Positions 12,969-64,000 of a stretch of 64,000 nt of DNA are shown piece after piece. Numbering within the stretch: position 1 is the stretch's first letter; every line of letters begins with the position of its first letter. Source of the stretch: Escherichia coli O157 typing phage 14; the sequence record KP869112; one strand, 5' to 3'. The position numbers and the translations under genes are program-made. The notes under the pieces are model-generated. The model saw nothing but the letters and a program-made list of their open reading frames with translations, was not told where the DNA came from and did not search any database.

Positions 12969-13093
12969 GTGTCCGTATCACGGACAGTTAGTGTCCGTAT
13001 TACGGGCAGATGTGTCCGCGTGACGGACAGTAGTGTCCGTATTACGGGCAGATGTGTCCGCGTGACGGACAGTGGTGTCCGTATCACGGACAG
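12969..13093. repeat. array of six 19-bp palindromic repeats (iteron/operator-like)
   Basis: Units at 12969, 12991, 13012, 13033, 13054 and 13075 with 21-22 bp period. Three variants: A gtgtccgtatcacggacag, B gtgtccgtattacgggcag, C gtgtccgcgtgacggacag, in order A-B-C-B-C-A. Each unit is an inverted repeat (TGTCCG...CGGACA). An AT-rich stretch flanks it at 12923-12968. Confidence 0.85.
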
Positions 13094-14120: not shown

Positions 14121-14127
14121 ACATTCC

Positions 14128-14538
14128 TCATTTAAGTTTAATGCAGTTTTTAAGCTGGCGTTCCATACGATCCACAACCTTGTCTGGAACATCATGAATG
14201 CTTTTATTACCGTGGCGGTTTTCAACCACGATCACGGTATAACTATACCCATGACTGATTGCCATGTCAACATATTCCTGCACATGTTTTTCTTTTGTAA
14301 ACGTATTACTTACCACGATACGGTCGTATCCCATACGCATCATATCTTCTACGTTATCTTTGCACCATTTTGCTGCGAGTGTTACTTTACTTGCATCCCA
14401 GTTGTAATTGCCGTCATCGTCATACCAGAACATGTCGTTCTCAAAATGTGGATACAGACCTTCTAAAGATAGCGCATTTGCCAGTGTTGATTTGCCAGAC
14501 CCTGGCAGACCACGCACGATATATAGCATTTTAGACAT
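14128..14538 (-). CDS. pnk: polynucleotide 5'-kinase (T4 Pnk kinase-domain-like)
   Basis: P-loop GLPGSGKST, then acidic NDMFWYDDDG, IVVSNTF and IHDVPDKVVDRM, matching the layout of the T4 polynucleotide kinase domain as I recall it. Confidence 0.65.
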   Translation of the reverse strand: MSKMLYIVRGLPGSGKSTLANALSLEGLYPHFENDMFWYDDDGNYNWDASKVTLAAKWCKDNVEDMMRMGYDRIVVSNTFTKEKHVQEYVDMAISHGYSYTVIVVENRHGNKSIHDVPDKVVDRMERQLKNCIKLK

Positions 14539-14638
14539 AGCAATCCTCCGTTTTAATTTTAATGATAGTATACCTAACTGTTTTGTTAATTTCAAGTGTT
14601 GACACTAGGTTATTTGTGTGGCAGGATAGACTGACAAA

Positions 14639-15574
14639 ATGACAAATGAGGAACGTATGATGAAGTATTTTAATGCAGATGACCTAGTAGACAAAGGTCT
14701 TGTAACCAGTCGGTATTATCCAGATCTTGGATTAAAGATCTATAAATATGCCAGAAAAGTATTCTACAACAATCTGTGGCATTTGTCTCCGCGTTTACTG
14801 GAGTGCCGAGGTATTGTTGTTGGCAATGAGGGGAATGTTGTGGCATGGCCTTTCACAAAAGTATTCAACTTAGGAGAAAACTCCACCAACCTACCGGACA
14901 GTAAACTTGTTACTGCGGTAGAGAAAAAGAACGGATTCCTCGGTGTGGTATCATCTCATAAAGGTGAACTATTGTTCTCAACAACCGGGTCTCTTGATTC
15001 TCCATATTGTAACCTTGCAAAGGAAACCATCCAAGAGCAATGTGGTAATTTAGATCTTATCAAGAAGGTTATGGGCAATGAAAACATGACATTCATGTTT
15101 GAAATTTGTCACCCTTCAGATCCGCATATTGTTCAAGAAGACCATGGCGCATATTTGATAGGTTGCAGATATAATGATTCTGGAATAATGCTACCAGAAG
15201 CAGCTTTAGATGGGATTGCCAAATACCTTGGTGCAAAACGTCCTCACACTGTGCGTGAAATCCCGTTCAGCTATGCAAAAGAATTAGCTGCAGAAACAAG
15301 GGGCGAAGGGTATATGATCCGTAAGCCTTACTACCCTTATGACCTGCAGCTGAAGATCAAGTCTCCATACTATTTGGCACGGAAGGCCGTAATGAGAGGT
15401 AAAGCATGGAAGATTTGGGATGACGATATTTTTAAACGTGTTGACGAGGAGTTTTACGGTATGGTAAAATTTATTCGTAGCAACTATACAGAAGATGTGT
15501 GGAATTGCTTATTAGAGCAGGAGCGTCGCGAGATACTGGACTGCTATTTCCACAACGAGGACTATATGCAATGA
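14639..15574 (+). CDS. rnlA: RNA ligase, T4 Rnl1 family
   Basis: LLECRGIVV, KVFNLGEN and the motif I lysine in VEKKNGFLGVV (KxNG) match the T4 RNA ligase 1 N-terminal region as recalled (ALECRGIMF, KFFNLNEN, TKEDGSL); also EGYMIR and KIKSP motifs. Confidence 0.8.
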   Translation: MTNEERMMKYFNADDLVDKGLVTSRYYPDLGLKIYKYARKVFYNNLWHLSPRLLECRGIVVGNEGNVVAWPFTKVFNLGENSTNLPDSKLVTAVEKKNGFLGVVSSHKGELLFSTTGSLDSPYCNLAKETIQEQCGNLDLIKKVMGNENMTFMFEICHPSDPHIVQEDHGAYLIGCRYNDSGIMLPEAALDGIAKYLGAKRPHTVREIPFSYAKELAAETRGEGYMIRKPYYPYDLQLKIKSPYYLARKAVMRGKAWKIWDDDIFKRVDEEFYGMVKFIRSNYTEDVWNCLLEQERREILDCYFHNEDYMQ

Positions 15575-15921
15575 AGAAGTGGATTGTGTGGCTTGATGAT
15601 TTTAGAGATCCGTCAGATTATGGACTCCCAGACGCTCTGTGGCTAAAGAATTCTTCTGAATTTATGGATTTTCTTAATGATAAGAGAAAGCTCTACAGAC
15701 GCGTATCTGAATGGTATTTTGACAATGATCTAGGTGAAGTTCTTGAAGGGTACGACTGCTTCTCTGCGCTAGAGGAGAAACTTGTATTCGGAAAGCCACC
15801 ACTTATTGACAACGTGATTATTTTCGTGCATACTTCTAATCCATCGGCAGCTCGTAAATTTATGCTTGCTGCTGACTCATTCAAGAAGTTTGGAATAGAG
15901 ATCAAACAAAACATCTACTAA
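15571..15921 (+). CDS. hypothetical protein
   Basis: Start at ATG 15571 overlapping the ligase stop (ATGA); no motif recognised. Confidence 0.4.
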   Translation: MKKWIVWLDDFRDPSDYGLPDALWLKNSSEFMDFLNDKRKLYRRVSEWYFDNDLGEVLEGYDCFSALEEKLVFGKPPLIDNVIIFVHTSNPSAARKFMLAADSFKKFGIEIKQNIY

Positions 15922-15929
15922 GGACATTT

Positions 15930-16691
15930 ATGCGACGACTTATTGTTATTTCTGGTGCTGGTTTGAGCGCAGAATCTGGTATTCCCACCTTCCGATCTGG
16001 TAGCACTGCAATGTGGGAGAATTTCAGCATCGATGAGGTGTGCAACATCCACACCTTTGCCAAGAACTACTATAAGGTGCATGACTTTTACAATGCACGT
16101 CGTGTAGCGCTGGGCAGTGTTGATCCTAACCTTGCACATCTTCGGATCGCTGAGTGGTATTCCCGCTGGTCTGGTCGTGTGATCAACCTTACCACCAATG
16201 TAGATGATTTGCTGGAGCGTGCTGGTGTAAAACATGAAGATATTTTACATGTCCACGGGTATTTGCCTGAAATCACCTACGAAGATGCTGAAGGTAATGA
16301 TGTAATTAAAAATATCGGATACACGGAGGTAGATACAGGCAAGTATACCTGGGTTAAGCCCAATGTAGTGTTCTTCGGCGAGGTTGCTCCTAAGTATACA
16401 GACATGTATGACCTGTTGACATCTCTCACCAGCAATGATATGGTGATCCTAGTGGGTTGTTCTAACACAGTTATTAATTTTAACTGGGAATTGTTTCCTG
16501 CTACTTGTAAAGGAACAAAACTGCTGATTGTAAACAAGTATGATTCGCAGAGTGCAGATGGAAGTGGCATTTCACGTAGCGACCTTTATCAATATGAGGA
16601 TCGCGGGATCCCTGTATGGTTTAACGGTGCTGTTGACGCTTTCTCTGATAAAGCATTTATTGAAACTGTAGAAAACTTTATGGAACTTTAA
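15930..16691 (+). CDS. Sir2-family (sirtuin-like) NAD-dependent protein
   Basis: Canonical sirtuin motifs GAGLSAESGIPTFR, TTNVDDL, HVHG and VVFFGE, but no Cys4 zinc ribbon between the HG and FGE motifs. Confidence 0.75.
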   Translation: MRRLIVISGAGLSAESGIPTFRSGSTAMWENFSIDEVCNIHTFAKNYYKVHDFYNARRVALGSVDPNLAHLRIAEWYSRWSGRVINLTTNVDDLLERAGVKHEDILHVHGYLPEITYEDAEGNDVIKNIGYTEVDTGKYTWVKPNVVFFGEVAPKYTDMYDLLTSLTSNDMVILVGCSNTVINFNWELFPATCKGTKLLIVNKYDSQSADGSGISRSDLYQYEDRGIPVWFNGAVDAFSDKAFIETVENFMEL

Positions 16692-52261: not shown

Positions 52262-52477
52262 ATGAAGATAGAAATATTTGGTGGAGCTGACAATACTCGT
52301 GGCCTGATTTACCTTGAATTCGATGAATCATACCTGCCAGAGGTGTTAAATATGGACTCTGTTGCTGATGCTTTGGGAGTAAGTCCTAAAGATCTCTACT
52401 CTGGTGCTGAGATTGATGGTTGGGAGGAGACCATGAACATTGATTTCAGTGAAGTAGGTGATGAACCACTGGACTGA
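52262..52477 (+). CDS. hypothetical acidic protein
   Basis: 71-aa ORF with GGAG SD; last plus-strand gene before the non-coding region. Confidence 0.35.
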   Translation: MKIEIFGGADNTRGLIYLEFDESYLPEVLNMDSVADALGVSPKDLYSGAEIDGWEETMNIDFSEVGDEPLD

Positions 52478-54020
52478 CACACAATTAGCTACCCGGCTAA
52501 AGTGCTGGGAGCACCTATAACACATCTTTCAACTAAATTTCCTACCACCACAATCACTTACCTCCCACACATGACTGTTTGCTTGTTTAGTGAGCAGTCA
52601 TGCCTTGACATTCTTGCCTATCCTGATAAAATTAAGTTCTTCTCTTTTCTTTTACCGAGTAATTCGGGTTTTCTGTTCTCTTCGGTTTGAAGGGGTATGG
52701 AGATACACCTGAGTGAACAGGGTGAACAACCGAACCATTGGCTATGGCATTAGCATGGCGAAGCGGACGGGTGACGAAAGAGGGGCCGGAGGACACCAGT
52801 CACTGCCATATGATATATAGGTGATAACCTGAAGAGTCTGAATAAGTGTTTAAGTACCAGTCAGAGGAAAAGGTGAATGGTAGCCGAAGGGGGAGGGGGG
52901 TTTCTTGTATCTTTAATTTGTATATTATGTATACACTTGTAAACCAACACCATCTGAATTTGCTTACCACACAAAGCGGATAGAGACAAATATTACCTAT
53001 TAAACTTGAATTATTTATAGAAAATACCACAACACCACTTAAGTCTTTGATTTTACACATAAATCCTACAGATATTCACCCTCCATATTTAACATACTTG
53101 TAACATATCTATACCCAACCTGTCTGATCAACTCACCCAACTACATCCTCCATATTTCCCCTGTCTGTACTACCCCTGCCCAGCCGGGAGTCCCGTCATA
53201 TCTGGCTTTCCAGCAAATATCACACCCACAAATATCATTGCCTGAAGAGGGTTTCATCCCATAATACATGCCTTACCTGAAGAGCGCTTCATACACCACG
53301 TAAATTTTTTAATTGACCTGCAATTTTCCCGTCATGACCCCCTGCCCCGCCAGAGAGGTTGACTTTTCCCACACAGACCTGAAGAGCCAGCCAGAAATAT
53401 CTGAACAGGTCCAGTTATACCACGATTTTGACCTGACCGACAGGAGTGCCTCCCTGTCAGGAGCCGGTAGCGACTGGAGTGCTGCCAGGCGGACGAAATG
53501 GGAATACTTCTCATTCTTATAATAATTCTCAAATATCGAGGCAGTGAGGCAAATTAATAGGTGAGGCCGTTCACACAGTGGCACAACATTTGCAACCTAT
53601 CTTGTGGGGTGAATGAGAATACCTATCATTGTGAGAATAGTTATCATTACGGGCAATTTAACATAATACCCATTATGCGCACCACTGGCGATACATACAG
53701 GGGTTGATAACATGAGTTACTGTTTACGCACATAACAATTATATTTCTTACTATTTGTGTGGGATATAGTTAGCAGCCGATAGATTAGATATTGACCTGT
53801 AGACTTCCAACCGTCTAGACGTCTAAACGCCCACACAACAAGGCTTATACATACATCACTGAATGTAAACAGGACCGCAAAAATGCTACCATACAAGCTT
53901 GTAAATTTTTCATGCAGCACTTGACAAAGAGGAGGAAAACTTGTCTGACACACTGGGCACAACATAACATACTGCAGCACAATATGACACAATAACGACT
54001 GTTATTATTTCATGTTTCAC

Positions 54021-54080
54021 TGTTCACGTATAGATTGTTCCCGCATAGACTGTTTACGCCTGGATAGTTCACGCATAGAT
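54021..54080. repeat. four tandem ~15-bp direct repeats
   Basis: tgttcacgtatagat, tgttcccgcatagac, tgtttacgcctggatag, ttcacgcatagat in tandem. Confidence 0.7.
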
Positions 54081-54086
54081 GATAAG

Positions 54087-54317
54087 CCATGCCATTCGTT
54101 TGCATGACAATAATTAACTTGTTTACAATAGATGACATAATATAAAAGCAGGGCAACTATTAGAAGATCATAGTTGCCTTGCTTGTTATGTCATGATTAA
54201 CTAAATACAAGGCAACTATGATCTGATTAATAGATTGCAGACAAACTATCACGGGGGTGATTGTTACTGCTTTTATATTATGTCGCGACTCCGTCGCGCC
54301 ATGCCATTCGTTTGCAT
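54087..54317. repeat. nested repeat structure: 19-bp direct repeats flanking a 17-bp inverted-repeat pair
   Basis: ccatgccattcgtttgcat at 54087-54105 and 54299-54317; acataatataaaagcag at 54135-54151 with exact reverse complement at 54268-54284; internal palindrome ggcaactat...atagttgcc (54151-54177). Confidence 0.8.
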
Positions 54318-54981
54318 AGTTGCCTTATTGTTACAGATAAAATAATTGTATTGTTAATTATTTCTTATCTTTCTATTAGTCATCTAATGATTTCAGTTAG
54401 TATAGTAACGTACAGTAAACATTAGACGACTAAAGATTTCTCTGCTTATAATAACCTAACGTGACAATTCCGGACTGTTTACGAAAAATGTTGACACCTG
54501 AGCTGATTTATGTTATGCAGTTTACACGAATAATTATTTTATGCAGGTATTGACTATTCTGTTATTCTATGGTTGGAATAAATACTTAGCAGGCTATAGA
54601 ATGGTGAGCGTACGTAAATTCTAAGATCTGGCGGCTATAGTTATGCCCGATTTTTCACGTAGAAAACGCTTTTATGAGTGTGTAAGTGTATGACTTATAA
54701 AGATTTTTAGTTGTTGACAAGATACTGAAGATGTGCATCAGGTTAAATTTTGTGCAATAGCGGCATTACGTGCAATTTTGGAAGGAAAAACGTGTAAAAA
54801 ATGGCGCTGCTACCACACAATGAAAGATTATGCAATAGCTATTTTACATGTATGTTTGTACAGTGGTGGTAATTGATGGCTTGTCGATTATTCCACTTGC
54901 CAGGCTGGGCCGTTTGTGGTAGGGGAAATACAGACAAAAAGAAAGGGGCCTTTTAAAGCCCCTGATAGTTTAGTTAATAAA

Positions 54982-55401
54982 TTATAATGATTCGTATATT
55001 TCAAAAATCCGATTTGCCAGGTCGTTACGGTACCGGAATTTTTCTTCACGTTTGATCATTAGATCTTTGAAGCCGTATTCTTTAAGCACTTCATTAACTT
55101 TATAGCGGCATACCCTCATATTGTCTTGCGCGTCACCGATAAACTTGTTGCTATGGTGCATGGCTTTAATTTCTTCTTCCAGGACCAGGGCAACTATGCG
55201 GACCGGATCAAGCTGATAGGCGGTAACATCCATGCGGCATTGTAAACGGCTTTTTACGTCTGCCACCGGGTATACTGCAACCTCTTCCCCGTCAACATTG
55301 ACAATAATTAGTTTACCATCGATTTCGAATCCTTTCGCCGCCGGACCGTGACAAAAAGCGTTATCAAAGCTATATGCCGGATTATTAGATTTGATGTTCA
55401 T
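54982..55401 (-). CDS. hypothetical protein
   Basis: 139-aa ORF with AAGAGG SD and an upstream sigma70-like promoter. Confidence 0.45.
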   Translation of the reverse strand: MNIKSNNPAYSFDNAFCHGPAAKGFEIDGKLIIVNVDGEEVAVYPVADVKSRLQCRMDVTAYQLDPVRIVALVLEEEIKAMHHSNKFIGDAQDNMRVCRYKVNEVLKEYGFKDLMIKREEKFRYRNDLANRIFEIYESL

Positions 55402-55450
55402 GGTGTTTTTACCTCTTAGTTAATTTTCTTACAACTTCCCTTCAAAAAAG

Positions 55451-55479
55451 AATATAGCAAAACTGCCGATCCTTGTCAA
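55451..55479 (-). promoter_or_regulatory. sigma70-like promoter (minus strand)
   Basis: On the minus strand: TTGACA, 17-nt spacer, TATATT, upstream of the 54982-55401 gene. Confidence 0.45.
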
Positions 55480-55548
55480 CCAAGGATAGCATAATTTTTA
55501 TGTGATCAAGGGGCTTTATTGCCCCCTCTGATCGTGCAACTTGTTGTA

Positions 55549-55812
55549 TTATTTGTTGCTCATCCAGTTTTCCCAGGCTGCCTGATAATCTGCCTCACTG
55601 CGGCGGATCTCTTCTTGCTCTTCAAGTCGGATCTCTTCTTCCAGGTACCCCAAGATGTCAGCCTTTTTGGTCTGGCGTAGCATCCAGTCATCTTTTTTGC
55701 GGGTAAAGATCTTATAAGCTTTCTCGCAAACCTCTTTTTTGCTACCTTTTTGGACTTCAAGAATTCTGTAGGCCATGTACTGAACTAATTTAAGCTGATC
55801 CAGACGTTTCAT
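55549..55812 (-). CDS. hypothetical protein
   Basis: 87 aa; AAAGAGGAAA SD. Confidence 0.4.
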   Translation of the reverse strand: MKRLDQLKLVQYMAYRILEVQKGSKKEVCEKAYKIFTRKKDDWMLRQTKKADILGYLEEEIRLEEQEEIRRSEADYQAAWENWMSNK

Positions 55813-55889
55813 GATGTTTCCTCTTTATGTGGTTCGTTTTGATTAGTTGATAATACAGCAGTTCGCAGATCAGTCTTTAGCAATTCATG

Positions 55890-56108
55890 CTATTTACTCA
55901 CAAGGGTGTCGAAAACAAATTTTTCTTTATTGTCTAAACTCACGTATCCGATTCGACCACGCAAGCCGCAAGTAGTGCCGTACTCGTAACCATTAAGGCC
56001 TTTAACCTTCCAATCCGTACCCATTAAAACCGCATTATATTCCTGACCAACTACAAAAGCGCCCCCAGTCGATTCAATGCAAACAACTTTAATTTTACGG
56101 GTTGTCAT
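55890..56108 (-). CDS. hypothetical protein
   Basis: 72 aa; preceded by GGGCC-aaaa-GGCCC hairpin and AAAGAGAGAAAG SD. Confidence 0.4.
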   Translation of the reverse strand: MTTRKIKVVCIESTGGAFVVGQEYNAVLMGTDWKVKGLNGYEYGTTCGLRGRIGYVSLDNKEKFVFDTLVSK

Positions 56109-56168
56109 TTTCTTTCTCTCTTTGTGTGGTTCTGATTAGTGGGCCTTTTGGCCCGTGTCATTATCTTA

Positions 56169-56441
56169 TTACTTGCGGCGGCAGAATTCAAGCGTTTTTA
56201 ATTGATAATCTTCCTCAGCCTGGAGTACGACCGCCTCGATCATTTCGTTGGCATTGTTAAAGCCATAACCTTTAGCGAACTCATCCGCGCCACCTTCGTG
56301 ATCATGTTCTGCGTTCATCGCTTCCACAAAATGGAATTCCAAATTGTTGAGGTAGGGGCTTGATGTTCCGTCCTCTTTTTCGATGAGATCCCAAATAGCA
56401 TTAAAACGTGATTCGACTTCTTGATTAATCCAGCTTGACAT
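56169..56441 (-). CDS. hypothetical acidic protein
   Basis: 90 aa; preceded by a GC hairpin and GAAGAGAGGAAA SD. Confidence 0.4.
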   Translation of the reverse strand: MSSWINQEVESRFNAIWDLIEKEDGTSSPYLNNLEFHFVEAMNAEHDHEGGADEFAKGYGFNNANEMIEAVVLQAEEDYQLKTLEFCRRK

Positions 56442-56652
56442 AATGTTTTCCTCTCTTCTGGTTGTTGTGTGGGCACTTTTGCCCCTTCAAGATAAATGTT
56501 ACCCCACCCCCTGGCAGATGTCAACGGTTTTTATAGTTCTTATATGACAGGCACCCCCGGTGATTGTCTCCCCCCGTCGCCAGGTGCCTGCCGTGGAATA
56601 AGTATAACAAAAAACAGGACCATTGCAAGCCCTGTTTTGTAGTTTATAAATA

Positions 56653-56844
56653 TTATATTTTTTCGCCTATGTAGTCCGGTCGGTTTTTCTCTGTCATGCG
56701 CTTTAGCAATTCTTGAATAATCCATATTGCGGTCAATGTCTCATCTTCACGCTTTGAGTCAACATAATCAGGATCGTTTATAACCTTTGTTTGATTATGA
56801 TATCTCAATACCGCCAACACTTTTACAGCTTCATCAGTGGTCAT
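56653..56844 (-). CDS. hypothetical protein
   Basis: 63-aa ORF. Confidence 0.3.
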   Translation of the reverse strand: MTTDEAVKVLAVLRYHNQTKVINDPDYVDSKREDETLTAIWIIQELLKRMTEKNRPDYIGEKI

Positions 56845-56989
56845 TATCGCACCTAAAACAATGAGTTAATATATAACACCAGATCGCTGACCACTAGAAT
56901 AACACTGATCAGCACATACCTAACCATAAGGGGAAAGAGCGCCAATATTGCCACCACAATCCCCAAGGTGATGATTATCTTTTTCATGG

Positions 56990-57274
56990 TTAACGGTTCA
57001 CGTAAGTTTTCCCGTTCACGGTTATGGGCAGATCCTCCAGGTCTGGGTCTTCCTTAAGGTCGCGAGCAAGCTCACCGCACCGGATACCCTCGAATCCGTA
57101 GTACTCTGTTGTACCGTCATTAAAAGTTTTAGCGGCAAGGCATAAGCGATAAGTAACCCCGATTTGATTGACGGCATGGATATCCGTTAGATCAACCTCT
57201 TTTGCCAGCTCTTTAGCCATTACAGGCGCATTAAGTCCAACAACCAGGGCAACCACTGCGATCATCTTTTTCAT
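56990..57274 (-). CDS. secreted/periplasmic protein
   Basis: N-terminal signal peptide MKKMIAVVALVVGLNAPVMA. Confidence 0.45.
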   Translation of the reverse strand: MKKMIAVVALVVGLNAPVMAKELAKEVDLTDIHAVNQIGVTYRLCLAAKTFNDGTTEYYGFEGIRCGELARDLKEDPDLEDLPITVNGKTYVNR

Positions 57275-57365
57275 TGTGTCTATCCTCTTTCTGCTACGTT
57301 TAAGGCGGCGGTAACCGCCTGTTTATGCTTTGTTGGTTAATTTTCAGGTATCTGTATAAATTAAA

Positions 57366-57590
57366 CTATGCTGTACGCTCAACTATAACAACGGTTTGGG
57401 GGATCTCACCTTCCACCACTAGTAAGGCCTTTTTCTGCGTGATGGATATCTTTACCCGTTGCAGCGTGGCGGTGAAGTCTTTCATTTCGTCACGTGGTGT
57501 TTTAGTGCAATGCCAGATCTCAGGCTTACCTATTTGCAAGCCGCGTAAAAATTCTGTTTTACCTGTCTTATTCGTGATCATTTTATTCAC
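57366..57590 (-). CDS. hypothetical protein
   Basis: 74-aa ORF. Confidence 0.35.
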   Translation of the reverse strand: MNKMITNKTGKTEFLRGLQIGKPEIWHCTKTPRDEMKDFTATLQRVKISITQKKALLVVEGEIPQTVVIVERTA

Positions 57591-57592
57591 CT

Positions 57593-57695
57593 TAACCGAT
57601 ACCGTGGGAAGATAGGATCATGTTAGCCATAGTTGCAACCACTCCAACCGATAATGCCAGGCCAACTACTACAACCGTGAAAATTTTCTCTAACA
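57593..57695 (-). CDS. small hydrophobic peptide (about 33 aa)
   Basis: Hand-translated: MLEKIFTVVVVGLALSVGVVATMANMILSSHG..., GAGGGT SD; below ORF-track cutoff; coordinates approximate. Confidence 0.3.
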
Positions 57696-57782
57696 TGATT
57701 CTACCCTCATTAATGGGCGTTGCCTTATTGCCCCGCCCTACGAAATACATTCTACCCGATTTGTAATTGTTGTCAAACTATT

Positions 57783-57962
57783 TTAACGATAATCATCATA
57801 TGCTTTATTTACCTGGCGAATATAACATTCAAAAGCCAGATCAATAGATTTATATTCACGAATATACTCACCATAGGAAACCACATACATTTCTATAGCT
57901 TCCTCATATGCGAGGAGAATAGAATCTAAGCCTACGATCTCAGTCTTTGCAATAATAGCCAT
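57783..57962 (-). CDS. hypothetical protein (59 aa) missing from the ORF track
   Basis: Hand-translated: MAIIAKTEIVGLDSILLAYEEAIEMYVVSYGEYIREYKSIDLAFECYIRQVNKAYDDYR; preceded by a GC hairpin and AAAGAGGA SD. Confidence 0.45.
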   Translation of the reverse strand: MAIIAKTEIVGLDSILLAYEEAIEMYVVSYGEYIREYKSIDLAFECYIRQVNKAYDDYR

Positions 57963-58038
57963 GATTTTTATCCTCTTTGTGGTTGGTGGGGCTTGTTGCC
58001 CCCCTTTGATTTATATATTACAGTCTTATATGGTCATG

Positions 58039-58272
58039 TCAACTATTTTCAAAAAATTTTTCTGCTGTGATATTTTTCCCGGTCGGATTCGCTACTTTCA
58101 AAATTTTATCATGTACTGGACGCCCAAAAGAATAAGATCCGTATACAGTAAACCAATAATCGCCGTCAGGCTGTACTATTACCGCCGCATATGGTACGCC
58201 TTTTTCGTTTTTGCTGACAAAATAGATCACATTGCCATTAATAGCCTCAGCGCGTTTAATTTGTTCCATCAT
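58039..58272 (-). CDS. hypothetical protein
   Basis: 77 aa; preceded by a GC hairpin and AAAGAGAGG SD. Confidence 0.4.
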   Translation of the reverse strand: MMEQIKRAEAINGNVIYFVSKNEKGVPYAAVIVQPDGDYWFTVYGSYSFGRPVHDKILKVANPTGKNITAEKFFENS

Positions 58273-58326
58273 GATGATTTACCTCTCTTTATTTTCATAA
58301 TTGGGGCCTTTTCGGCCCCGCCAGGT

Positions 58327-58611
58327 TTATTTATTGATAGCGTGCAGCGGGAAAGGTACGCCAGGTTGATAGATAACTTTTACAACCTCATCAGGGCAAA
58401 AGAAATTGCAGAATTCCCCCTGATAAGCCTCATCCTCTTTCAATTCTTCATCAACATACTCAAAAAAGTAGTCAACACTTGGATAATCTTGCCCTGGGTT
58501 ATAGTCAACCATTGTCAGGACCAGTTCAAGATCGTTGCGTAGGATATGCATACCCGCTTTTAAGTATTTTGCTTCCATTTCTACTACATCGCCAGCGGTA
58601 ACAATAGCCAT
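58327..58611 (-). CDS. hypothetical acidic protein
   Basis: 94 aa; upstream TATGGATAAT extended -10-like motif and GGGGGG...CCCCCC hairpin. Confidence 0.4.
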   Translation of the reverse strand: MAIVTAGDVVEMEAKYLKAGMHILRNDLELVLTMVDYNPGQDYPSVDYFFEYVDEELKEDEAYQGEFCNFFCPDEVVKVIYQPGVPFPLHAINK

Positions 58612-58813
58612 GGTTTTAACTCCTATCTATCCGGTTAATGATTGGGGGGCCTCCCCCCTGACACGTCCTATTATCCATATTGTAGGGCTTGATGCAAGTA
58701 CTTCTTTAAAAAATTTTTAAGCGCCTTGGGGCCGCTGTAACGCTAAAATAATAAAGGCCATGCAACCGCATAGCCTTTATGTGATTATATCACTGCAGGA
58801 CCTGCTAGAGGCC

Positions 58814-59164
58814 TTATTTTGCATTCTTGCCTGTATTGCCGCCACGGTACCAGCGTTTGCGGTGAAAATGGTAATAATCACCCTCGGCATTAAACATCAG
58901 ATGATTTTCAATAACCAGCTTACGAAGGTGGGCCGGATCTTGTTCCATTCTTGCCAGATTCCGGCGGCTGTTACGTAAGCGTATAAATTCCATATTCAGG
59001 CCGTTGATTGCAGCATGGATGTCAAAGTAACCACCTTTGAGACGTTCACGCATGGCGTTAAGCTCAACACAATATACAGATTTCTCACAAATCAAGGTAT
59101 TAGCTAGGGCGCGGACCTGGGCAAGGGGGTTAAGCTCATTAAGGTAATATAGTTTGACTTTCAT
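58814..59164 (-). CDS. hypothetical basic protein
   Basis: 116-aa ORF. Confidence 0.4.
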   Translation of the reverse strand: MKVKLYYLNELNPLAQVRALANTLICEKSVYCVELNAMRERLKGGYFDIHAAINGLNMEFIRLRNSRRNLARMEQDPAHLRKLVIENHLMFNAEGDYYHFHRKRWYRGGNTGKNAK

Positions 59165-59181
59165 AAAATCGCCTGCTGAAA

Positions 59182-59481
59182 TTAGTTTGAGAAAACATCG
59201 TTCACAATAGCGATCACAATGCCGCCCACCTTGTCACGGTCAACAATGCACAAATCACCATGGATCATGCGGTAGTCTGGATGATCTTTCACAGAATAGT
59301 CAATAAGTGTTTTCTTGTCGTCCAGCTTCGTAACTTCCATTCTCATAACGATATGAGAATCATCAAAGGCATTATTCCGAAAAGTCATAGCCTGACCGCC
59401 AGGGCACCCGGTGATCTCCACTTCCACACCATCTACGATCTGACCATCAAAGAAATAAAGATTATTAGCCTGGATAAACAT
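59182..59481 (-). CDS. hypothetical protein
   Basis: Start at ATG 59481 (AAGGA SD). Confidence 0.4.
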   Translation of the reverse strand: MFIQANNLYFFDGQIVDGVEVEITGCPGGQAMTFRNNAFDDSHIVMRMEVTKLDDKKTLIDYSVKDHPDYRMIHGDLCIVDRDKVGGIVIAIVNDVFSN

Positions 59482-59574
59482 GTCTATCACTCCTTGTTAA
59501 CTGCGTGGTATTTTAACAGGGTTTAAATTTACTTTATTGATGGCCCTGGAGTCAAGGCCATCTAAAAATAAATT

Positions 59575-59775
59575 TTACAGGCCTACAATCTCTTTGATTC
59601 GTTTAACCGCTGCCTCAGCGCCTTGGGGGTAAAAATTATGGTAACCAATCACGCGAGTGATACTAATCGCCGTTTGATGATCTTCATAGTCGCCCTTGAA
59701 GATTTCTTGACCGTCAATCAGCACGGCAATTTTTTCTTCTTTTTTGAAGTTAATAACGCGGATATTGTTGCTCAT
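59575..59775 (-). CDS. hypothetical protein
   Basis: 66 aa; upstream TATGGATAAT motif and GGGGA...TCCCC hairpin. Confidence 0.4.
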   Translation of the reverse strand: MSNNIRVINFKKEEKIAVLIDGQEIFKGDYEDHQTAISITRVIGYHNFYPQGAEAAVKRIKEIVGL

Positions 59776-60030
59776 TTTGTTTCTCCTTTCTGGTTTTTGT
59801 GTTGGTGGGGATGTTTCCCCGTTGATTGTTATTATCCATATTGCGGACCAGATTGCAACACCCTGGAAGAAAAATTTTTTGAAAAAGTTAAGCCCCCCAT
59901 GATCGGGGGCGTTATCAGTTACTTATAGCAATAAAGTACATTCCTACCCCTAACAATATTTCAAGGGCGATGATCTCAAGCCATACCATAACCTGGCGCA
60001 CCTTATCGGTGCGGGGCTTATCCTTGGTTG

Positions 60031-60276
60031 TCATCGTCTCCCCCTTTCCTCCTGGTAGTAGTGACGTAGTTTACAATGGCCCCCAGGAGTACCATCACCA
60101 CGCACATCATAAGAAAAATTATCTCTGTCGTTGTTCGATCCATTGTTATAAAATTCCTCAAGATCAGGCCTGAAAATAAAGCGTTCGTTATTGAATCCAT
60201 CACGCCAGGCGGCTGGCTTCAAATCTTCATTAAAGGGATTAATTAACGTGGTATTATTTAAACGGCTGGCCCACAT
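60031..60276 (-). CDS. hypothetical protein
   Basis: Start at ATG 60276 (GAGAGGAA SD); overlaps the upstream gene's 3' end by about 22 nt, so uncertain. Confidence 0.3.
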   Translation of the reverse strand: MWASRLNNTTLINPFNEDLKPAAWRDGFNNERFIFRPDLEEFYNNGSNNDRDNFSYDVRGDGTPGGHCKLRHYYQEERGRR

Positions 60277-60625
60277 ATTTTCTATTCCTCTCAAATAGGC
60301 GATCCGCCTCAGTTAAACATATCTCATGGGCTTGATCTCTGGTTTTAGCCTCATCAAAAACTTGTTGTGCCAGGCTGCAGCGCAAGGAGACCGGAAGATC
60401 ACTATAATAGGCGTTAACAAAAGTTTGGGCGTCATACAGGTCGGAAAATACTTTACCCTTCTTATTATTATCCTTGTCAACAATTGCAAGGATAACTAGT
60501 ACAATGGTTGCAACCACCCCCAAGAAAATAGATATAATAAACCATAAAAAGGCGGATCTACCCATCTTGCCAGCTATCCAGGCGTTGAACAAGGCAACTA
60601 CTACAGCCAAAATAATAAATTCCAT
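60254..60625 (-). CDS. membrane protein
   Basis: Start at internal ATG 60625 (AAGAGG SD); two transmembrane helices (ILAVVVALFNAWIAG, LWFIISIFLGVVATIVLVILAIV). Confidence 0.45.
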   Translation of the reverse strand: MEFIILAVVVALFNAWIAGKMGRSAFLWFIISIFLGVVATIVLVILAIVDKDNNKKGKVFSDLYDAQTFVNAYYSDLPVSLRCSLAQQVFDEAKTRDQAHEICLTEADRLFERNRKYVGQPFK

Positions 60626-60692
60626 TCTATGTACCTCTTTTGCAGTTCTGTTTAACAATAAGGCGGCAAATATGCCGCCGCCTGTTACCTGA

Positions 60693-61073
60693 TTAAAAAC
60701 TATCGCCGTAAATCTTCCCGCTTTCTGCCCACACCACCACGCGGGGCATACTATCCCACACATCTTGTTTTAGATTGAGCGCGTGCAATTCTTCGATGGT
60801 GCCCATACCGGGCACGGGCTGATTGTATACTGCAAAACGACCACCCGCATAATCATAGGCTAGAATTAAATCACACTGGATCATCTTTTTGATCATGGCA
60901 TTAAGCATGGCGTTAGCCGCATACTGATCACGTTTTAAAGGCAACTCTTTGATTAGTTTGCGATAGTTTTCGATATGGTCGCACACTGTTTCACGCGGAA
61001 GATCTTTCATATCCTCGCGAAAGGTAACCAGGTTAAACATAACGGTGTAAATAGCTTTGGTAGTGTTTTTCAT
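60693..61073 (-). CDS. hypothetical protein
   Basis: 126 aa; upstream minus-strand promoter-like TTGCAA, 17-nt spacer, TATATT. Confidence 0.4.
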   Translation of the reverse strand: MKNTTKAIYTVMFNLVTFREDMKDLPRETVCDHIENYRKLIKELPLKRDQYAANAMLNAMIKKMIQCDLILAYDYAGGRFAVYNQPVPGMGTIEELHALNLKQDVWDSMPRVVVWAESGKIYGDSF

Positions 61074-61162
61074 GATGTTTTCCTCTTTGTTTTGTGTGGG
61101 GGCAAACGTCTTGCCCCTTGAGTTTTAATATAGCAGGTTTTTAGGTTATTGCAACACTTTAT

Positions 61163-61786
61163 TTATGAAAAAGTCATCTCGCCATATTCATCCACATCAA
61201 ACCGCCAATCATTGGCCTCGATAAGGCCGATCAGGTTTTCGGTGGTGAATTGTTCAAGATAGGCTTGCTCCAGGTCTACGTAAACCTTGCGGGATAACTC
61301 CCGTACCGTCTCGGTGATCAGCTCTTCCAGCTCTTCAACTTTATCCTCTTGCTTGGTGGTCAGGTCTAGCCAATTGGTATCGATGCACCCGCCTATTGTG
61401 TTTTCGTGATGATAATGGCTAAACGGGATACGTTCAACGCTGGCTGACAGTTCGCCATCATGCATTGTGCCGAACAAGTGTCTAATTAAGCGGAATTTTG
61501 TAAGCGCTTTAACCTTACGCAAGAATTTTTCTAAGTTTACATTTTCAGCGCTAATTGATGCGCCGTCGCCTTGACACCAAAAGCCGGACCAATGTATTTC
61601 GGTATCTTCAAGGCCATACTCTGGAAAAACATATTCTTTATAGTACTCAATTACACTTTCTGCAAAAAAGTTATCCCCGCTGTGTTCTTCTCTTTCGCGG
61701 ACCATTTCAACAGCTTTTTCTTTTTGTTCGTCGGTCAGCACGTCGAAAGATAAATTGTAACCTGTAGTAATGTTAACGGTGGTCAT
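61163..61786 (-). CDS. hypothetical acidic protein
   Basis: 207-aa ORF ending about 35 nt before the N run. Confidence 0.45.
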   Translation of the reverse strand: MTTVNITTGYNLSFDVLTDEQKEKAVEMVREREEHSGDNFFAESVIEYYKEYVFPEYGLEDTEIHWSGFWCQGDGASISAENVNLEKFLRKVKALTKFRLIRHLFGTMHDGELSASVERIPFSHYHHENTIGGCIDTNWLDLTTKQEDKVEELEELITETVRELSRKVYVDLEQAYLEQFTTENLIGLIEANDWRFDVDEYGEMTFS

Positions 61787-61820
61787 GATATTTTCTCCTA
61801 TTTTCTTTGTTAGTGGCGGG

Positions 61821-62094
61821 NNNNNNNNNNNNNNNNNNNNNNNNNNNNNNNNNNNNNNNNNNNNNNNNNNNNNNNNNNNNNNNNNNNNNNNNNNNNNNNN
61901 NNNNNNNNNNNNNNNNNNNNNNNNNNNNNNNNNNNNNNNNNNNNNNNNNNNNNNNNNNNNNNNNNNNNNNNNNNNNNNNNNNNNNNNNNNNNNNNNNNNN
62001 NNNNNNNNNNNNNNNNNNNNNNNNNNNNNNNNNNNNNNNNNNNNNNNNNNNNNNNNNNNNNNNNNNNNNNNNNNNNNNNNNNNNNNNNNNNNNN
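61821..62094. other. assembly gap (run of 274 N)
   Basis: Uninterrupted N characters. Confidence 0.99.
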
Positions 62095-62247
62095 TTTAAT
62101 CACTGGACGGCCTTGCCAGTGCCCTTGGAGAAAGCGCGCTTTAACTTTATCGGTGGAACTATCACGCCACCAAACGGCTTTATTATTGCAGTAGTAAAAA
62201 TTATTCAGGACAACATCGACTTTATCAAAATTTTTTAATTTACGCAT
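62095..62247 (-). CDS. hypothetical protein, 3' end lost in the gap
   Basis: Minus-strand ORF starts at 62247 (MRKLKNFDKVDVVLNNFYYCNNK...) and runs into the N run. Confidence 0.3.
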
Positions 62248-62450
62248 GGCGTTTACTCCTTCCTTCTTGCTTTGATGTGGTTAGTATATCCGGACTATCC
62301 CAAGGTGTCAAGCTTTAAATAGAATCACTGTCAATAATATTTTTAACGCCATAAAACGGCCCTAGACGCTGTTTTCAGGTTAAGAAAGGGGATTGCATAG
62401 GTAGGGGCCTTTATGGCGCTTGTAGGGCCAACCAGGGGCGCTATCGGCGG

Positions 62451-62484
62451 GATAGAAATAAAAAGCCCCGCACAATGGCGGGGC
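62451..62484 (-). terminator. rho-independent terminator (minus strand)
   Basis: Minus strand: GCCCCGC-cattgt-GCGGGGC followed by TTTTATTTC. Confidence 0.6.
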
Positions 62485-62492
62485 GTTGGTTG

Positions 62493-62714
62493 CTATTTGT
62501 CTTTGTGGCGGTATCGTTCCGCCTGTCGTTCACGTTCCAAAAGCAGGCCCGGTAATTTGCGATCATAGTGATTTCTCCAGATCTTCCCGAACCTTTTCGG
62601 TTTATTCGGTTTATTGTTACGCTGGCGGCGTTCCGGCAGCTCTTCGGAATCGTGGGGGCGCTTTACAATTTTTTCGAAATTAATTTTCATAAACGCCCCC
62701 TTTACTGATCTCAA
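62493..62714 (-). CDS. hypothetical basic protein
   Basis: 73 aa, Arg/Lys-rich. Confidence 0.4.
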   Translation of the reverse strand: MRSVKGAFMKINFEKIVKRPHDSEELPERRQRNNKPNKPKRFGKIWRNHYDRKLPGLLLERERQAERYRHKDK

Positions 62715-63051
62715 TATTTGCCTGAATCGCCCGGATACGACGTTTTATAGTCTCCTGATCCTTGCAATCATATCCCCAAAAGTCTACGATTTTTGCGCCG
62801 CCAGCCTTTAAGCGGTATAATGTTTCTTGCATCTTGTAAGCTGGGATCGGTCTCGGTGTTACCTGGTCCCCTTTCTCATCCTTGTACTTGATAATGTAGT
62901 CTTCATTGTCGTTGAATACCCAAAATGGGTATTCTGTAAGCGCGTTGCTCTCTTTTTCGTTTTTGGATTGGATCTTGTTTACAATTAAAGCCGTAGCAAT
63001 AGCGCCAATAATAAAACTTGCCCCGCTGATCATGTTACTTTCTCCTTTCAT
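62680..63051 (-). CDS. hypothetical protein with N-terminal transmembrane segment
   Basis: ISGASFIIGAIATALIV then soluble domain. Confidence 0.4.
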   Translation of the reverse strand: MKGESNMISGASFIIGAIATALIVNKIQSKNEKESNALTEYPFWVFNDNEDYIIKYKDEKGDQVTPRPIPAYKMQETLYRLKAGGAKIVDFWGYDCKDQETIKRRIRAIQANIEISKGGVYEN

Positions 63052-63109
63052 TGTGCTGATAAACTATCTTTATAGATGGCCCTGCTACCAGGACCACCGA
63101 AAAAACAGT

Positions 63110-63355
63110 TTATTTGACGATACCGACAAAACAGATCCCGCCTTCCCCTATATAGGCAACATCGGTAATTTTATAATTTGTCAAGATCCGCGTGTTCAGA
63201 TCATTAATAAAATCGGTCATCGCGTTGGTGTAGTTGTCTTCCGTGTCTAAGGCATAATCCCAGGTGTAAACCTTTTTACGTCCGAAGCCTTTTACCATGA
63301 TACGGGCGCTTTTGGTGTTGGTAGGGGCATAATATTTGGTGATTAGTGCTGCCAT
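63110..63355 (-). CDS. hypothetical protein
   Basis: 81-aa ORF. Confidence 0.4.
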   Translation of the reverse strand: MAALITKYYAPTNTKSARIMVKGFGRKKVYTWDYALDTEDNYTNAMTDFINDLNTRILTNYKITDVAYIGEGGICFVGIVK

Positions 63356-63444
63356 GGTTTTAACTCCTCTGAATTAGTTCAGTGTTAACAGTATAAAGTT
63401 TACTTTATTGATGGCCCTGAAGTCAAGGCCATCTAAAAATAATC

Positions 63445-63786
63445 TTACTCGTTTTCTTCCAGCTCTGCAAGCTCTTCTTTTGCTTCTTCTAACTCTGTCT
63501 GTAGTTCCTGGTATTCTTCATCGTCCTCAATATCCAGGCTGTCGATGTAGTCGCTAAATCCGCAGCGGTAAGCGATAGGATCTAGCTCCTCGAGGATACG
63601 CGACGGAAGAAAAGAAATGTTTCCGATCATAATTTCGCCGTAGATCTCGTCTAACCATTCATCATAGTTTTCGTCGTACTTGTCCTCGTCGATTTCAAAG
63701 TTATCGATCTTATTCTCAAGGTCTGCGATCTGTTTTTTCAGCGCGGCGATCTGCATGGCTTTTTCTGCGGCGGTCATAGTAGTCAT
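63445..63786 (-). CDS. hypothetical acidic coiled-coil protein
   Basis: 113 aa, very acidic. Confidence 0.4.
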   Translation of the reverse strand: MTTMTAAEKAMQIAALKKQIADLENKIDNFEIDEDKYDENYDEWLDEIYGEIMIGNISFLPSRILEELDPIAYRCGFSDYIDSLDIEDDEEYQELQTELEEAKEELAELEENE

Positions 63787-63864
63787 GGTGTTTTTCTCCT
63801 TTTGTGTGTTCTGGGAAGTTTTCCCGTCTATGTGTTTAGTATACTGATCTAAGTTAGCTTGTCA

Positions 63865-63984
63865 ATTAAAAGTTTAAGAAAAATTTTGCGATACCGTTGG
63901 CGCTACCCATCAACATTTGCGCCAGGATGTAACCAATGATGCAAACGATAATAGTTACCTTTGTGTGCTGGCGTGTAGTACTCA
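63865..63984 (-). CDS. small hydrophobic peptide (about 39 aa)
   Basis: Hand-translated: MSTTRQHTKVTIIVCIIGYILAQMLMGSANGIAKFFLNF; AAGGGGG SD; coordinates approximate. Confidence 0.3.
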
Positions 63985-64000
63985 TCTTTAAGCCCCCTTT

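Follow-up and report, generated by a model that had tools for sequence, protein, structure and literature searches.

The 64,000-nucleotide (nt) stretch of Escherichia coli O157 typing phage 14 analysed here (sequence record KP869112; the window below) carries, between positions 55000 and 63990, a block of small genes read from the minus strand. rV5, naswa, EmilHeitz, FFH2 and about 250 other records match this block, with coverage of 92-97% and identity of 93-96% (about 94-96% for rV5), and on these matches the window is a segment of a Vequintavirus genome, that is, of an rV5-like E. coli phage. The counterpart of the block in rV5 is ORF164-193, also on the minus strand; in the rV5 genome paper the block genes are included in a leftward unit, "genes 10-1-238-164", the in silico prediction lists 33 sigma-70 promoters and 20 terminators, and hairpins following the promoters go unmentioned (PMC3606486). 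The rV5 promoter annotations P164, P168, P186 and P192 are four of the promoters identified in the block. Taken together, the observations make it probable that the block is the variable, small-gene end of that leftward transcription unit and is made of promoter and stem-loop cassettes of the kind named PeSL in T4-like phages, with the hairpin lying at the predicted 5' end of each message. The relatives used for comparison were taken from GenBank phage records; a search of IMG/VR with the protein encoded at 58327-58611 returned three loci only.

The anatomy of the cassettes emerged from a reading of the minus strand in which the 120 nt upstream of each start codon were set side by side. The order of elements is an AT-rich tract, a -35 hexamer, 16-17 nt, a -10 hexamer, an interval of 8-12 nt that ends in a C/A-rich patch, a GC hairpin with a G-rich 5' arm, an A/C-rich spacer, a Shine-Dalgarno sequence (SD) and ATG. 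The -35 variants are TTGACA, TTGCAA and TTGCAT (with TTGAAT in the weak promoter of the gene starting at 56108), the -10 variants TATACT, TATATT, GATAAT, TAATAT, TAGAAT, TAACAT and TAAGAT, and the SD, of the types AGAGG, AGAGAGG, AAAGAGG and AAGGAG, lies 7-10 nt upstream of the ATG. Ten gene-proximal promoters score 8-11 of 12 against the consensus at a spacing of 16-17 nt; the 20 nt upstream of -35 are 65-90% A+T in six cassettes (for example gaaaaattttttgaaaatag), and the stems, of the GGGG..CCCC type, have 5-8 bp and folding energies of -5.5 to -17.8 kcal/mol. The original prediction had described the block as a series of promoter, hairpin, SD and open reading frame (ORF) cassettes, and all the elements it quoted are present on the minus strand, such as the TTGACA-17-TATATT at 55479-55451. 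A 14-mer that it had called extended -10-like, CAATATGGATAATA, is found exactly at 58669-58682 and 59830-59843, although the name fits approximately only, the TG standing at -14/-13 and not at -15/-14, one base nearer to GATAAT than in the canonical extended -10.

Eight cassettes are fully visible, those of the genes starting at 63786, 61073, 59775, 58611, 57962, 57696, 56441 and 56108, all on the minus strand. The cassette of gene 63445-63786 (63784-63865) has TTGACA at 63865-63860, N16, TATACT at 63843-63838, 12 nt, the hairpin GGGAAaacTTCCC at 63825-63813, an A/C-rich spacer, the SD AAGGAG at 63801-63796 and the ATG at 63786. That of gene 60693-61073 (61071-61154) consists of TTGCAA at 61154-61149, N16, TATATT at 61132-61127, 9 nt, the hairpin GGGGCAAGacgTTTGCCCC at 61117-61099 (-12.1 kcal/mol), cacacaaaacaa, the SD AGAGG and the ATG at 61073. 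Both copies of the 14-mer belong to cassettes: in front of gene 59575-59775 (59773-59858) TTGCAA at 59858-59853 is followed by N16, GATAAT at 59836-59831 within the 14-mer at 59843-59830, 10 nt, the hairpin GGGGAaacaTCCCC at 59820-59807, accaacacaaaaaccaga, the SD AAGGAG and the ATG at 59775, and in front of gene 58327-58611 (58609-58697) TTGCAT at 58697-58692 is followed by N16, GATAAT at 58675-58670 (14-mer 58682-58669), 11 nt, the hairpin GGGGGGaggCCCCCC at 58658-58644, the SD AGGAG and the ATG at 58611. The next two serve very short genes. That of the 59-amino-acid (aa) gene 57783-57962 (57960-58042) shows TTGACA at 58042-58037, N16, TAATAT at 58020-58015, 10 nt, the hairpin GGGGGGCaacaaGCCCC(acc) at 58004-57985, accaaccacaa, the SD AGAGG and the ATG at 57962; that of the 34-aa membrane peptide gene 57592-57696 (57694-57776) shows TTGACA at 57776-57771, N16, TAGAAT at 57754-57749, 10 nt, an interrupted hairpin, GGGCGgggcaataaggcaaCGCCC, at 57738-57715 (-14.9 kcal/mol), the SD GAGGG and the ATG at 57696. 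Gene 56169-56441 (56439-56524) is preceded by TTGACA at 56524-56519, N17, TAACAT at 56501-56496, 11 nt, the hairpin GGGCAaaagTGCCC at 56484-56471, acacaacaaccaga, the SD AGAGAGG and the ATG at 56441. The last, of gene 55890-56108 (56106-56191), has a weak promoter lying over the upstream stop codon, TTGAAT at 56191-56186, N17 and TAAGAT at 56168-56163, then 8 nt, the hairpin GGGCCaaaaGGCCC at 56154-56141, actaatcagaaccacacaa, the SD AGAGAG and the ATG at 56108.

A ninth cassette, that of gene 61163-61786, is interrupted by a run of N at 61821-62094, and what is visible (61784-61820, minus strand) is the 3' arm CCCGCC at 61820-61815, the spacer actaacaaagaaaat, the SD AGGAG and the ATG at 61786; its masked part is supplied by the relatives rV5, WalterGehring and EPFV3 as TTGACA-16-TATACT/TATAAT-taaacacaca-GGCGGGAAaaCTTCCCGCC. 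The run masks this cassette's promoter and hairpin 5' arm and also the 3' part of the rV5 ORF186 homologue (the gene starting at 62247). It is 274 nt long, as against 148 nt in rV5, so that either the window has extra sequence here or the length of the mask is not faithful. Two further promoters of the block, also on the minus strand, have leaders of another kind. Gene 54982-55401 (promoter region 55399-55479) has the TTGACA-17-TATATT at 55479-55451, an SD and the ATG at 55401, with a weak A/U-G hairpin only, and forms an incomplete cassette; at 62245-62337 tandem -35 boxes (62337-62332 and 62311-62306) precede the -10 TATACT at 62288-62283, a CA-rich leader without hairpin, an SD and the ATG at 62247.

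The position of the hairpins is far from what chance would give. When the 48 nt after -10 were shuffled at the 12 gene-proximal promoters, a hairpin being defined as at least 5 bp with at least 3 GC pairs, 0.30 hairpins starting 8-13 nt past -10 were expected, and 7 are observed (Poisson-binomial P = 8.6e-11); an eighth at the same position has an interrupted stem. The spacer of 6-19 nt between hairpin and SD is 85% A+C, against a strand background of 52% (p ~3e-13), and a U-tract is absent after every promoter-proximal hairpin. These hairpins have folding energies of -5.5 to -14.9 kcal/mol, and in folds of the whole leader the ribosome site is mostly unpaired, with a mean P(unpaired) of 0.74-0.86 in five cassettes and of 0.45-0.54 in the 58611 and 57696 cassettes. 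With hairpin starts 8-12 nt past -10, at about +2 to +6 of a predicted sigma-70 transcript, and no U-tracts, the earlier view of the hairpins as 5'-UTR (5' untranslated region) elements appears to fit better than one of terminators.

The pattern of change among relatives points the same way. For each of the eight cassettes the orthologous sequences of nine Vequintavirus relatives were aligned with it, and the share of cells that differ was computed part by part: it is 0.0% (0/348) for the -35 hexamer, 2.4% for the SD, 3.4% for the -10 hexamer, 4.3% between SD and ATG, 6.4% in the A/C-rich spacer, 6.6% in the stem arms, 6.8% between -10 and hairpin, 10.4% in the promoter spacer, 10.5% upstream of -35 and 23.4% in the hairpin loop. 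Such a footprint is what functional promoters and ribosome sites, and a structure with no constraint on its loop, would be expected to leave; with -35, -10 and SD as the most conserved intergenic positions, the suggestion that the cassettes are transcribed independently gains in silico support. Most of the changes in the stems preserve pairing, and a few break a terminal pair. The stem at 58658 goes in the relatives from GGGGGG/CCCCCC to GGGGGT/GCCTCC and then GGAGGT/GCCTCC, one pair passing from GC through GT to AT; the 61117 stem is longer in three relatives by an extra G on one side and an extra C on the other; and the stem of the masked cassette shows a CG to TG change. Across the cassettes 47 distinct stem sequences are found at the same position.

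In the block these phages also differ in gene content, even among relatives that are 91-96% identical. Compared by BLAST with 10 Vequintavirus relatives, the block shows nine distinct insertion, deletion or replacement events, four of them with 11-36 nt of overlapping homology at the junctions, inside cassette parts (57733-57754; 55812-55847 with 56105-56140; 54944-54965 with 55508-55527; 62329-62339). EmilHeitz and naswa have a 470-nt insertion of two cassette-plus-gene units between copies of TAGAMTgtatttcgtaGGGCGG, at a site where the window has the first unit's promoter joined to the third unit's hairpin (the 57696 cassette). Gene 55890-56108 and its cassette are absent from Murica, WalterGehring, EPFV3 and the record L004, the loss being an exchange between the gaaccacaYaaagag leaders gaaccacaCaaagag and gaaccacaTaaagag. 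Gene 54982-55401 is lost in the record L003 by exchange between two GGGGC..GCCCC hairpins, and is lacking in Gotham too, there with no junction overlap, while L004 has a 536-nt insertion with three extra small ORFs between the tandem TTGACA boxes at 62329-62339. In three or four further events at least one end lies in a cassette part, and an unbiased repeat search returned cassette parts as the top dispersed direct-repeat families of the block.

Elements of this kind were described in the T4-like phages RB49 and phi1 by Arbiol et al. (2010) under the name PeSL (promoter-early stem-loop). Their parts are an AT-rich tract, a sigma-70 early promoter of consensus type, a GGGG..CCCC stem-loop for which five positions were distinguished, an SD and an ATG; they sit between genes of unknown function in hyperplastic regions, promoter activity was shown for them and terminator activity for one stem-loop, and recombination between them gives rise to indels and mini-circles (PMC2839356). 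Further T4-like phages, PST/T4 and nt-1/KVP40, were added by Comeau et al. (2014; PMC4122927). The cassettes of the block share with them the near-consensus sigma-70 promoter, the AT-rich tract, the GGGG..CCCC stem-loop, the CA-rich leader with strong SD and ATG (phi1's own cassettes having the same leader style, acacacatcaaaacgaaac..GGAG), the setting, a variable region where they separate small genes of unknown function, and indel junctions within the cassettes. Stem-loops in other PeSL positions are also found in the window: upstream of -35 (11109-11085), over the -35 (63433 and 56638) and in the -35/-10 interval (13577-13558). The differences are that the phage belongs here to the Vequintavirinae and not to the Straboviridae, thus outside the T4-like myoviruses, the one group from which PeSLs had been described; that in phi1 the promoter itself contains the stem-loop, with a start 14-25 nt ahead of the end of -10, whereas here and in Phapecoctavirus the start is 8-14 nt after it, in the predicted transcript; that the hairpins here lack the T-rich tail which the -10 box gives those of phi1, so that terminator activity seems doubtful; and that mini-circles and promoter activity were shown for RB49 and phi1, the promoters here being predicted ones. 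In all, the cassettes appear to belong to the PeSL kind already described, in a phage subfamily for which we found no earlier description; no paper linking PeSLs to rV5-like phages was found in the literature.

The shift in stem-loop position was followed by scanning promoter-plus-SD sites from 25 nt before -35 to 55 nt after -10, hairpin starts being counted from the end of -10. In Vequintavirus 31 of 65 hairpin-bearing sites have the hairpin at +9 to +12, and 21 sites have it at -38/-37, the latter representing a 47-nt repeat described below; in Phapecoctavirus it starts at +8 to +14 in 35 of 39 such sites; in the Krischvirus phi1 it starts at -25/-24, in the promoter spacer, and at -16/-14, over the -10. 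The Phapecoctavirus genomes Ro121c4YLVW and EP57 hold, in the equivalent region, more than 20 cassettes of nearly one sequence, TTGACA-N16/17-TAAGAT/TAAACT-gtatcacrta-GGGCGGCaatggTGCCGCtc-acaacagaAGAGAG-ATG, with stem variants that preserve pairing; single genes homologous to those of the block are present as well, in another order and with the resident cassette type in front. A still more distant case is the 44.7-kb siphovirus Pandora71 (L017 29687-30030), which has a homologue, 51% identical, of gene 56169-56441, flanked by two copies of the 29-nt aaccacatcGGGAGGCaatacYGCCTCCC, the sole copies in that genome, the first preceded by TTGCAA-17-TATATT. By its flanks, this gene looks cassette-borne, acquired from or common to large myoviruses, and its place between two hairpin copies may be taken as an indirect hint of cassette circle formation. 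The occurrence of the design in Vequintavirus, Phapecoctavirus and a 44.7-kb siphovirus would thus widen the host range of PeSLs rather than exclude these cassettes from them.

What such a cassette might do can be proposed from its geometry. Transcripts from sigma-70 promoters start 6-9 nt past the -10, and therefore the dominant hairpin should lie within the cassette's own RNA, about 0-6 nt from its 5' end, this being the overhang that the textbook start rule predicts for hairpins beginning 8-12 nt past -10; for 5'-terminal stabilisers of the ompA type the expected overhang is about 0-4 unpaired nt. Host RNA polymerase would transcribe each unit independently and soon after infection; the "early" timing, for which the host-type promoters and the analogy with T4-like phages are the arguments, is plausible. 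A base-paired 5' end would hinder RppH and 5'-end-dependent RNase E, and a leader poor in G and U could neither compete with nor invade the stem, leaving the ribosome site open; a paired 5' end with an open leader would, we propose, therefore give stable, well-translated short early mRNAs, whatever gene follows. In E. coli mRNA, stabilisation by 5' structure is explained by the need of RppH and RNase E for single-stranded 5' ends, and 5' stem-loop stabilisers are known from ompA and papA (Emory, Bouvet and Belasco 1992; Arnold 1998; both reviewed in PMC3997798). The ompA and papA leaders likewise have a stable hairpin a few nt from the 5' end (here a predicted one), followed by an open ribosome site, but they belong to single cellular genes with measured half-lives, whereas here we have a repeated, exchangeable module with a predicted 5' end; the likeness is one of functional analogy, not homology. 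Within the reading as a whole, we would give somewhat less than an even chance to this specific role of the hairpin, that of a stabiliser of the mRNA 5' end and not of a terminator. As regards exchange, we propose that the phage recombination system swaps, deletes and inserts cassette-plus-gene units because the cassettes share short sequences, which would keep the region hyperplastic.

Several points weigh against this picture of stabilising and exchangeable cassettes. For this phage group we found in the literature no transcript 5' ends, half-lives or timing, and therefore promoter use, start sites and "early" expression are predictions. A 5' overhang of 2-6 nt, within the range predicted, may still admit RppH; the only figure found is for the Bacillus subtilis RppH, which needs at least 2 unpaired nucleotides. 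No stable hairpin accompanies the good promoters at 62311-62283 and 55479-55451; at 63825-63813 there is a weak one (-5.5 kcal/mol), which begins 12 nt past -10; and similar GC hairpins at 58319, 57320 and 60683 have no promoter, so that they would not be 5'-terminal unless the RNA were processed. Orthologous covariation is thin, with one two-sided compensatory pair, a few one-sided changes and a few disruptions, and the 47 stem variants of paralogous cassettes come from a detector that requires pairing and so are not an independent proof of structure. A covariance model made from these variants would be circular for the same reason, and the analysis relied on orthologues and on the statistics of position. 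The recurrent deletion of 58825-59173 and parts of three other events end outside cassette parts. Junctions would in any case be expected between genes, events that disrupt genes being removed by selection, and the shared sequence at the junctions, rather than their location, is therefore the stronger argument.

The stem-loops might instead be mainly terminators or attenuators that insulate the cassettes from upstream read-through, their place in the 5'-UTR having no function. Insulation of this kind was proposed and partly shown for the PeSL stem-loops of RB49 and phi1, that of PeSL211/210 cutting lacZ expression about as much as rrnB T1 (PMC2839356), and in the present block there is a composite terminator and promoter at 56638-56601 and a weak T-rich tail at 60683, while the annotators of phage Murica call the 47-nt repeats terminators. 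We nevertheless regard this as unlikely. The stem-loop type tested in phi1 lies inside the promoter and is followed by the T-rich -10, which is not so here, where the promoter-proximal hairpins have no U-tract and the next 6-19 nt are 85% A+C; an efficient terminator 10 nt past -10 would end the cassette's own transcript at about 20 nt; and separate canonical terminators already delimit the units. Less probable again is a role of the hairpins as DNA only, either as recombination hot spots or as protein targets in cruciform or single-strand form, the RNA being incidental. Deletion junctions do lie inside or directly beside hairpins, those at 58319 and 57320 persist without a promoter, the Pandora71 gene is bracketed by two copies of one hairpin, and the PeSL authors speculated on a protein targeting GGGG..CCCC (PMC2839356). 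Yet a recombination site would have no need of a position so tightly fixed with respect to -10 (mode 10-11 nt), several junctions fall in leaders or -35 boxes and not in hairpins, no recombinase or integrase was seen in the records examined, and the composition of the spacer and the strand-specific orientation, with the G arm first, point to a constraint at the level of RNA.

A constraint on RNA could also come from a protein, the hairpin being a boxB-like antitermination site or the operator of a phage nuclease or translational repressor through which the early genes are shut off together. Several of the hairpins resemble the lambda boxB in size and in their purine-rich loops (a GC stem of 5-6 bp; loops GAAAA, AAAA, AAAG), and they share with it an A-rich loop of 4-5 nt and a place near a predicted early transcript start, as in GGGGCCgaaaaGGCCCC at 58319-58303. 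We know of no N-like protein in these phages, although no search aimed at one was made. The Phapecoctavirus element is conserved in sequence too, gtaGGGCGGCaatggTGCCGCtc occurring in many copies, and T4 targets the ribosome sites of early genes through RegB and RegA (PMC3014915). However, among the cassettes of the window and of the phages close to it, the loops evolve fastest (23% differing cells) and the stems differ completely between cassettes, which argues against a sequence-specific ligand; there are many copies and not two as for boxB, a boxA-like partner motif was not seen, no Rfam family is matched, and gene conversion among cassettes can account for the uniform sequence in Phapecoctavirus. 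This makes a regulatory site of that kind quite improbable. That there is no design at all, the pattern simply following from composition and from promoters and terminators of the ordinary sort, is scarcely credible: promoter-like hexamer pairs are indeed common in AT-rich phage DNA, 41 being found against 27.7 expected in 12 kb, but the hairpin-position P of 8.6e-11 and the conservation of the hexamers contradict it, and the design recurs in three further phage groups.

Two other modes of gene movement bear comparison with the exchange proposed here. Lambdoid phage morons (Hendrix et al. 2000, discussed in PMC2839356) are likewise single extra genes with their own promoter and hairpin in otherwise unrelated phages, as in Pandora71, but they have no shared, repeated linker and are thought to move by illegitimate recombination, whereas the present units have repeated cassette flanks with homology at the junctions. 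Integron attC cassettes, a comparison also made by the PeSL authors (PMC2839356), resemble them in holding single genes, promoterless or short, between imperfect inverted repeats; in contrast, here no integrase was seen in the records examined, the repeats carry promoters, and the junctions show plain homology rather than site-specific crossover.

A wider proposal, which we put forward as rather unlikely, is that the promoter, the GC hairpin at the 5' terminus and the A/C-rich leader make up a portable "self" mark of early messages, common to unrelated coliphages (T4-like, rV5-like, Phapecoctavirus and at least one siphovirus), which would shield them from 5'-end-dependent decay while the phage accelerates the decay of host mRNA and would also serve as inter-family homology for gene transfer. 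The Srd protein of T4 stimulates RNase E. An Srd homologue is reported in the rV5 paper (PMC3606486); one was sought in the window and not found, and the argument from Srd therefore draws on the rV5 paper alone. What the divergent region near 14 kb does encode is a phosphoesterase (13566-14225, minus strand), a kinase-like ATPase or polynucleotide kinase (14128-14595, minus) and an RNA ligase (14639-15574, plus), a gene set within 13566-16691 that resembles an RNA repair set, together with a 253-aa ORF at 15930-16691.

If the reading of the block as stabilising, exchangeable cassettes is right, a small reusable unit of expression and recombination organises the most variable part of the genomes of rV5-like phages, which are widely used in phage therapy and biocontrol collections. 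For annotation, the cassettes would then provide a rule for finding real small genes, including those below length cut-offs, and transcription units; in comparative genomics they would predict sites of gene gain and loss; and for engineering they would offer natural insertion sites and a graded series of compact promoter-leader parts that differ in strength. The finding of the design beyond the T4-like phages would also support PeSL-type linkers as a general route of gene exchange among coliphages.

The small ORFs that the original prediction had thought unannotated are indeed conserved genes, open in all relatives examined, but they already stand in rV5 and other GenBank records and are absent only from the 60-aa track used earlier; two of the three coordinate pairs were off by one. 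All are on the minus strand. The 59-aa gene at 57783-57962 corresponds to rV5 ORF174, EmilHeitz bas49_0124 and phrog_9374; it has 5-6 synonymous and no non-synonymous changes in most close relatives, and in Phapecoctavirus it is 83% identical, with 16 synonymous and 10 non-synonymous changes. A 34-aa hydrophobic peptide is encoded at 57592-57696 (rV5 ORF173 region, EmilHeitz bas49_0126), with two allelic forms among the relatives, and one of 39 aa at 63866-63985 (rV5 ORF193, EmilHeitz bas49_0109). As for the idea of a host-takeover module, it finds no support, all 20 of the block proteins scanned matching only PHROG families of unknown function, a result that speaks neither for nor against it; the same 20 proteins gave no Pfam match at the curated cut-off and two sub-threshold matches. 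A similarity of rV5 ORF167 to RB49 was not used, there being no RB49 match among the tblastn matches listed. Gene 58814-59164 is absent from rV5, and its 99-aa neighbour 59182-59481 is represented there by two ORFs, ORF177 and ORF178, a split (window 58814-59481 against 5327-5641 of record L001) that suggests a frameshift or a sequencing difference in one of the records.

Besides the cassettes, the minus strand of the block has three copies of the 47-nt repeat, with one more in the relatives just past the end of the window. The first, TTATTTTTA-GATGGCCTTGACTTCAGGGCCATC-AATAAAGTAAAC at 63396-63442, lies upstream of gene 63110-63355; the second, 96% identical, at 59525-59571, upstream of gene 59182-59481; and the third, diverged to 70%, GGTGGTCCTGgtagCAGGGCCATC at 63061-63107, upstream of gene 62680-63033. 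The repeat forms a 10-bp hairpin (-17.8 kcal/mol) that holds a -35-like TTGACT, with a -10-like TAAACT 18 nt on, and corresponds to the PeSL subclass with the stem-loop over the -35. In the composite terminator and promoter at 56601-56638 the hairpin AAAACAGGGCTtgcaatGGTCCTGTTTT has TTGCAA in its loop and its T-tract runs into the -10 TATACT. The intergenic hairpin GGGGCCgaaaaGGCCCC (58303-58319, -14.7 kcal/mol), 30 nt before the ATG at 58272, has no recognisable promoter, nor has AGGCGGTtaccGCCGCCT (57303-57320) before gene 56990-57274; AGGCGGCGGcatatTTGCCGCCT (60661-60683), before gene 60254-60625, is followed by TATTGTT and is weakly terminator-like. More regular terminator-like hairpins are GCCCCGCcattgtGCGGGGC at 62465-62484, of intrinsic type and followed by TTTTTATTT; one at 59892-59910, followed by TTAACTTTTT; one of 13 bp at 58751-58780, followed by TATTTT; and AGGGGCTTtaaaAGGCCCCT at 54944-54963, followed by TTCTTTTTG, at the end of the block. 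This last forms one side of the L003 deletion junction, the other being the hairpin AGGGGGCaataaaGCCCCTT at 55508-55527, 3' of gene 55549-55812. Six terminator-like hairpins with T-tracts are thus present (62484, 60683, 59910, 58780, 56638 and 54963), and the canonical ones at 62484, 59910, 58780 and 54963 split the block into about six units. Rfam at gathering thresholds found only tRNAs across the whole window, and an Rfam 15 E-value search of the block gave best E-values of 0.44 and 0.92, far below gathering scores.

Some further features were noted in passing. At 56530-56628 (minus strand) the promoter-like site TTGCAA-16-TATACT, with TG before the TATACT, is followed after 8 nt by a hairpin of about 50 nt, GGCAGGCACC...GGTGCCTGTC (-25.6 kcal/mol, z = -2.9), with no convincing ORF between it and the next promoter at 56524, though some records annotate a 90-nt ORF; this could be a small RNA or a decayed cassette. 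An identical 18-nt sequence, AGGAGTTAAAACCATGGC, covers the stretch from SD to fifth coding base of two otherwise different genes (58607-58624 and 63351-63368) and is another possible crossover patch. Outside the block, also on the minus strand, TTGACA-GCGGGGAgtaaTCCCTGC-TATTTT at 13577-13558 has a hairpin between -35 and -10, and at 11109-11085 the hairpin GTCGCAGGGaataccaCCCTGCGGC lies just upstream of TTGACA-17-TAAAAT. An array of six 21-nt units (ATGTGTCCGTATCACGGACAG), each with the inverted repeat TGTCCGT..ACGGACA, occupies 12967-13093, just downstream of the 116-aa gene 13168-13518, and resembles iterons or a protein-binding array, perhaps a replication origin. The exact Phapecoctavirus hairpin 21-mer GTAGGGCGGCAATGGTGCCGC is present in relatives of about 150 kb among public viral contigs, and once each in the IMG/VR contigs L018, L019 and L023 (36-61 kb, GC-rich and mutually similar), which have no detectable similarity to these phages; a conserved stretch whose last letters are gtgaagttggg precedes it there. 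Coincidence may explain these three occurrences, or the hairpin may have an unrelated use in them. Finally, some 2.6 kb at about 52300-54980, between the convergent plus- and minus-strand units, hold no convincing genes and correspond to the "non-coding" box of the rV5 paper, and include four copies of a 15-nt repeat (54021-54080) and two of an 18-nt repeat (53614-53648); the Gotham record begins at about 53.5-53.95 kb of the window, with a 459-bp terminal repeat, and the small-gene block therefore adjoins the physical end of the genome.

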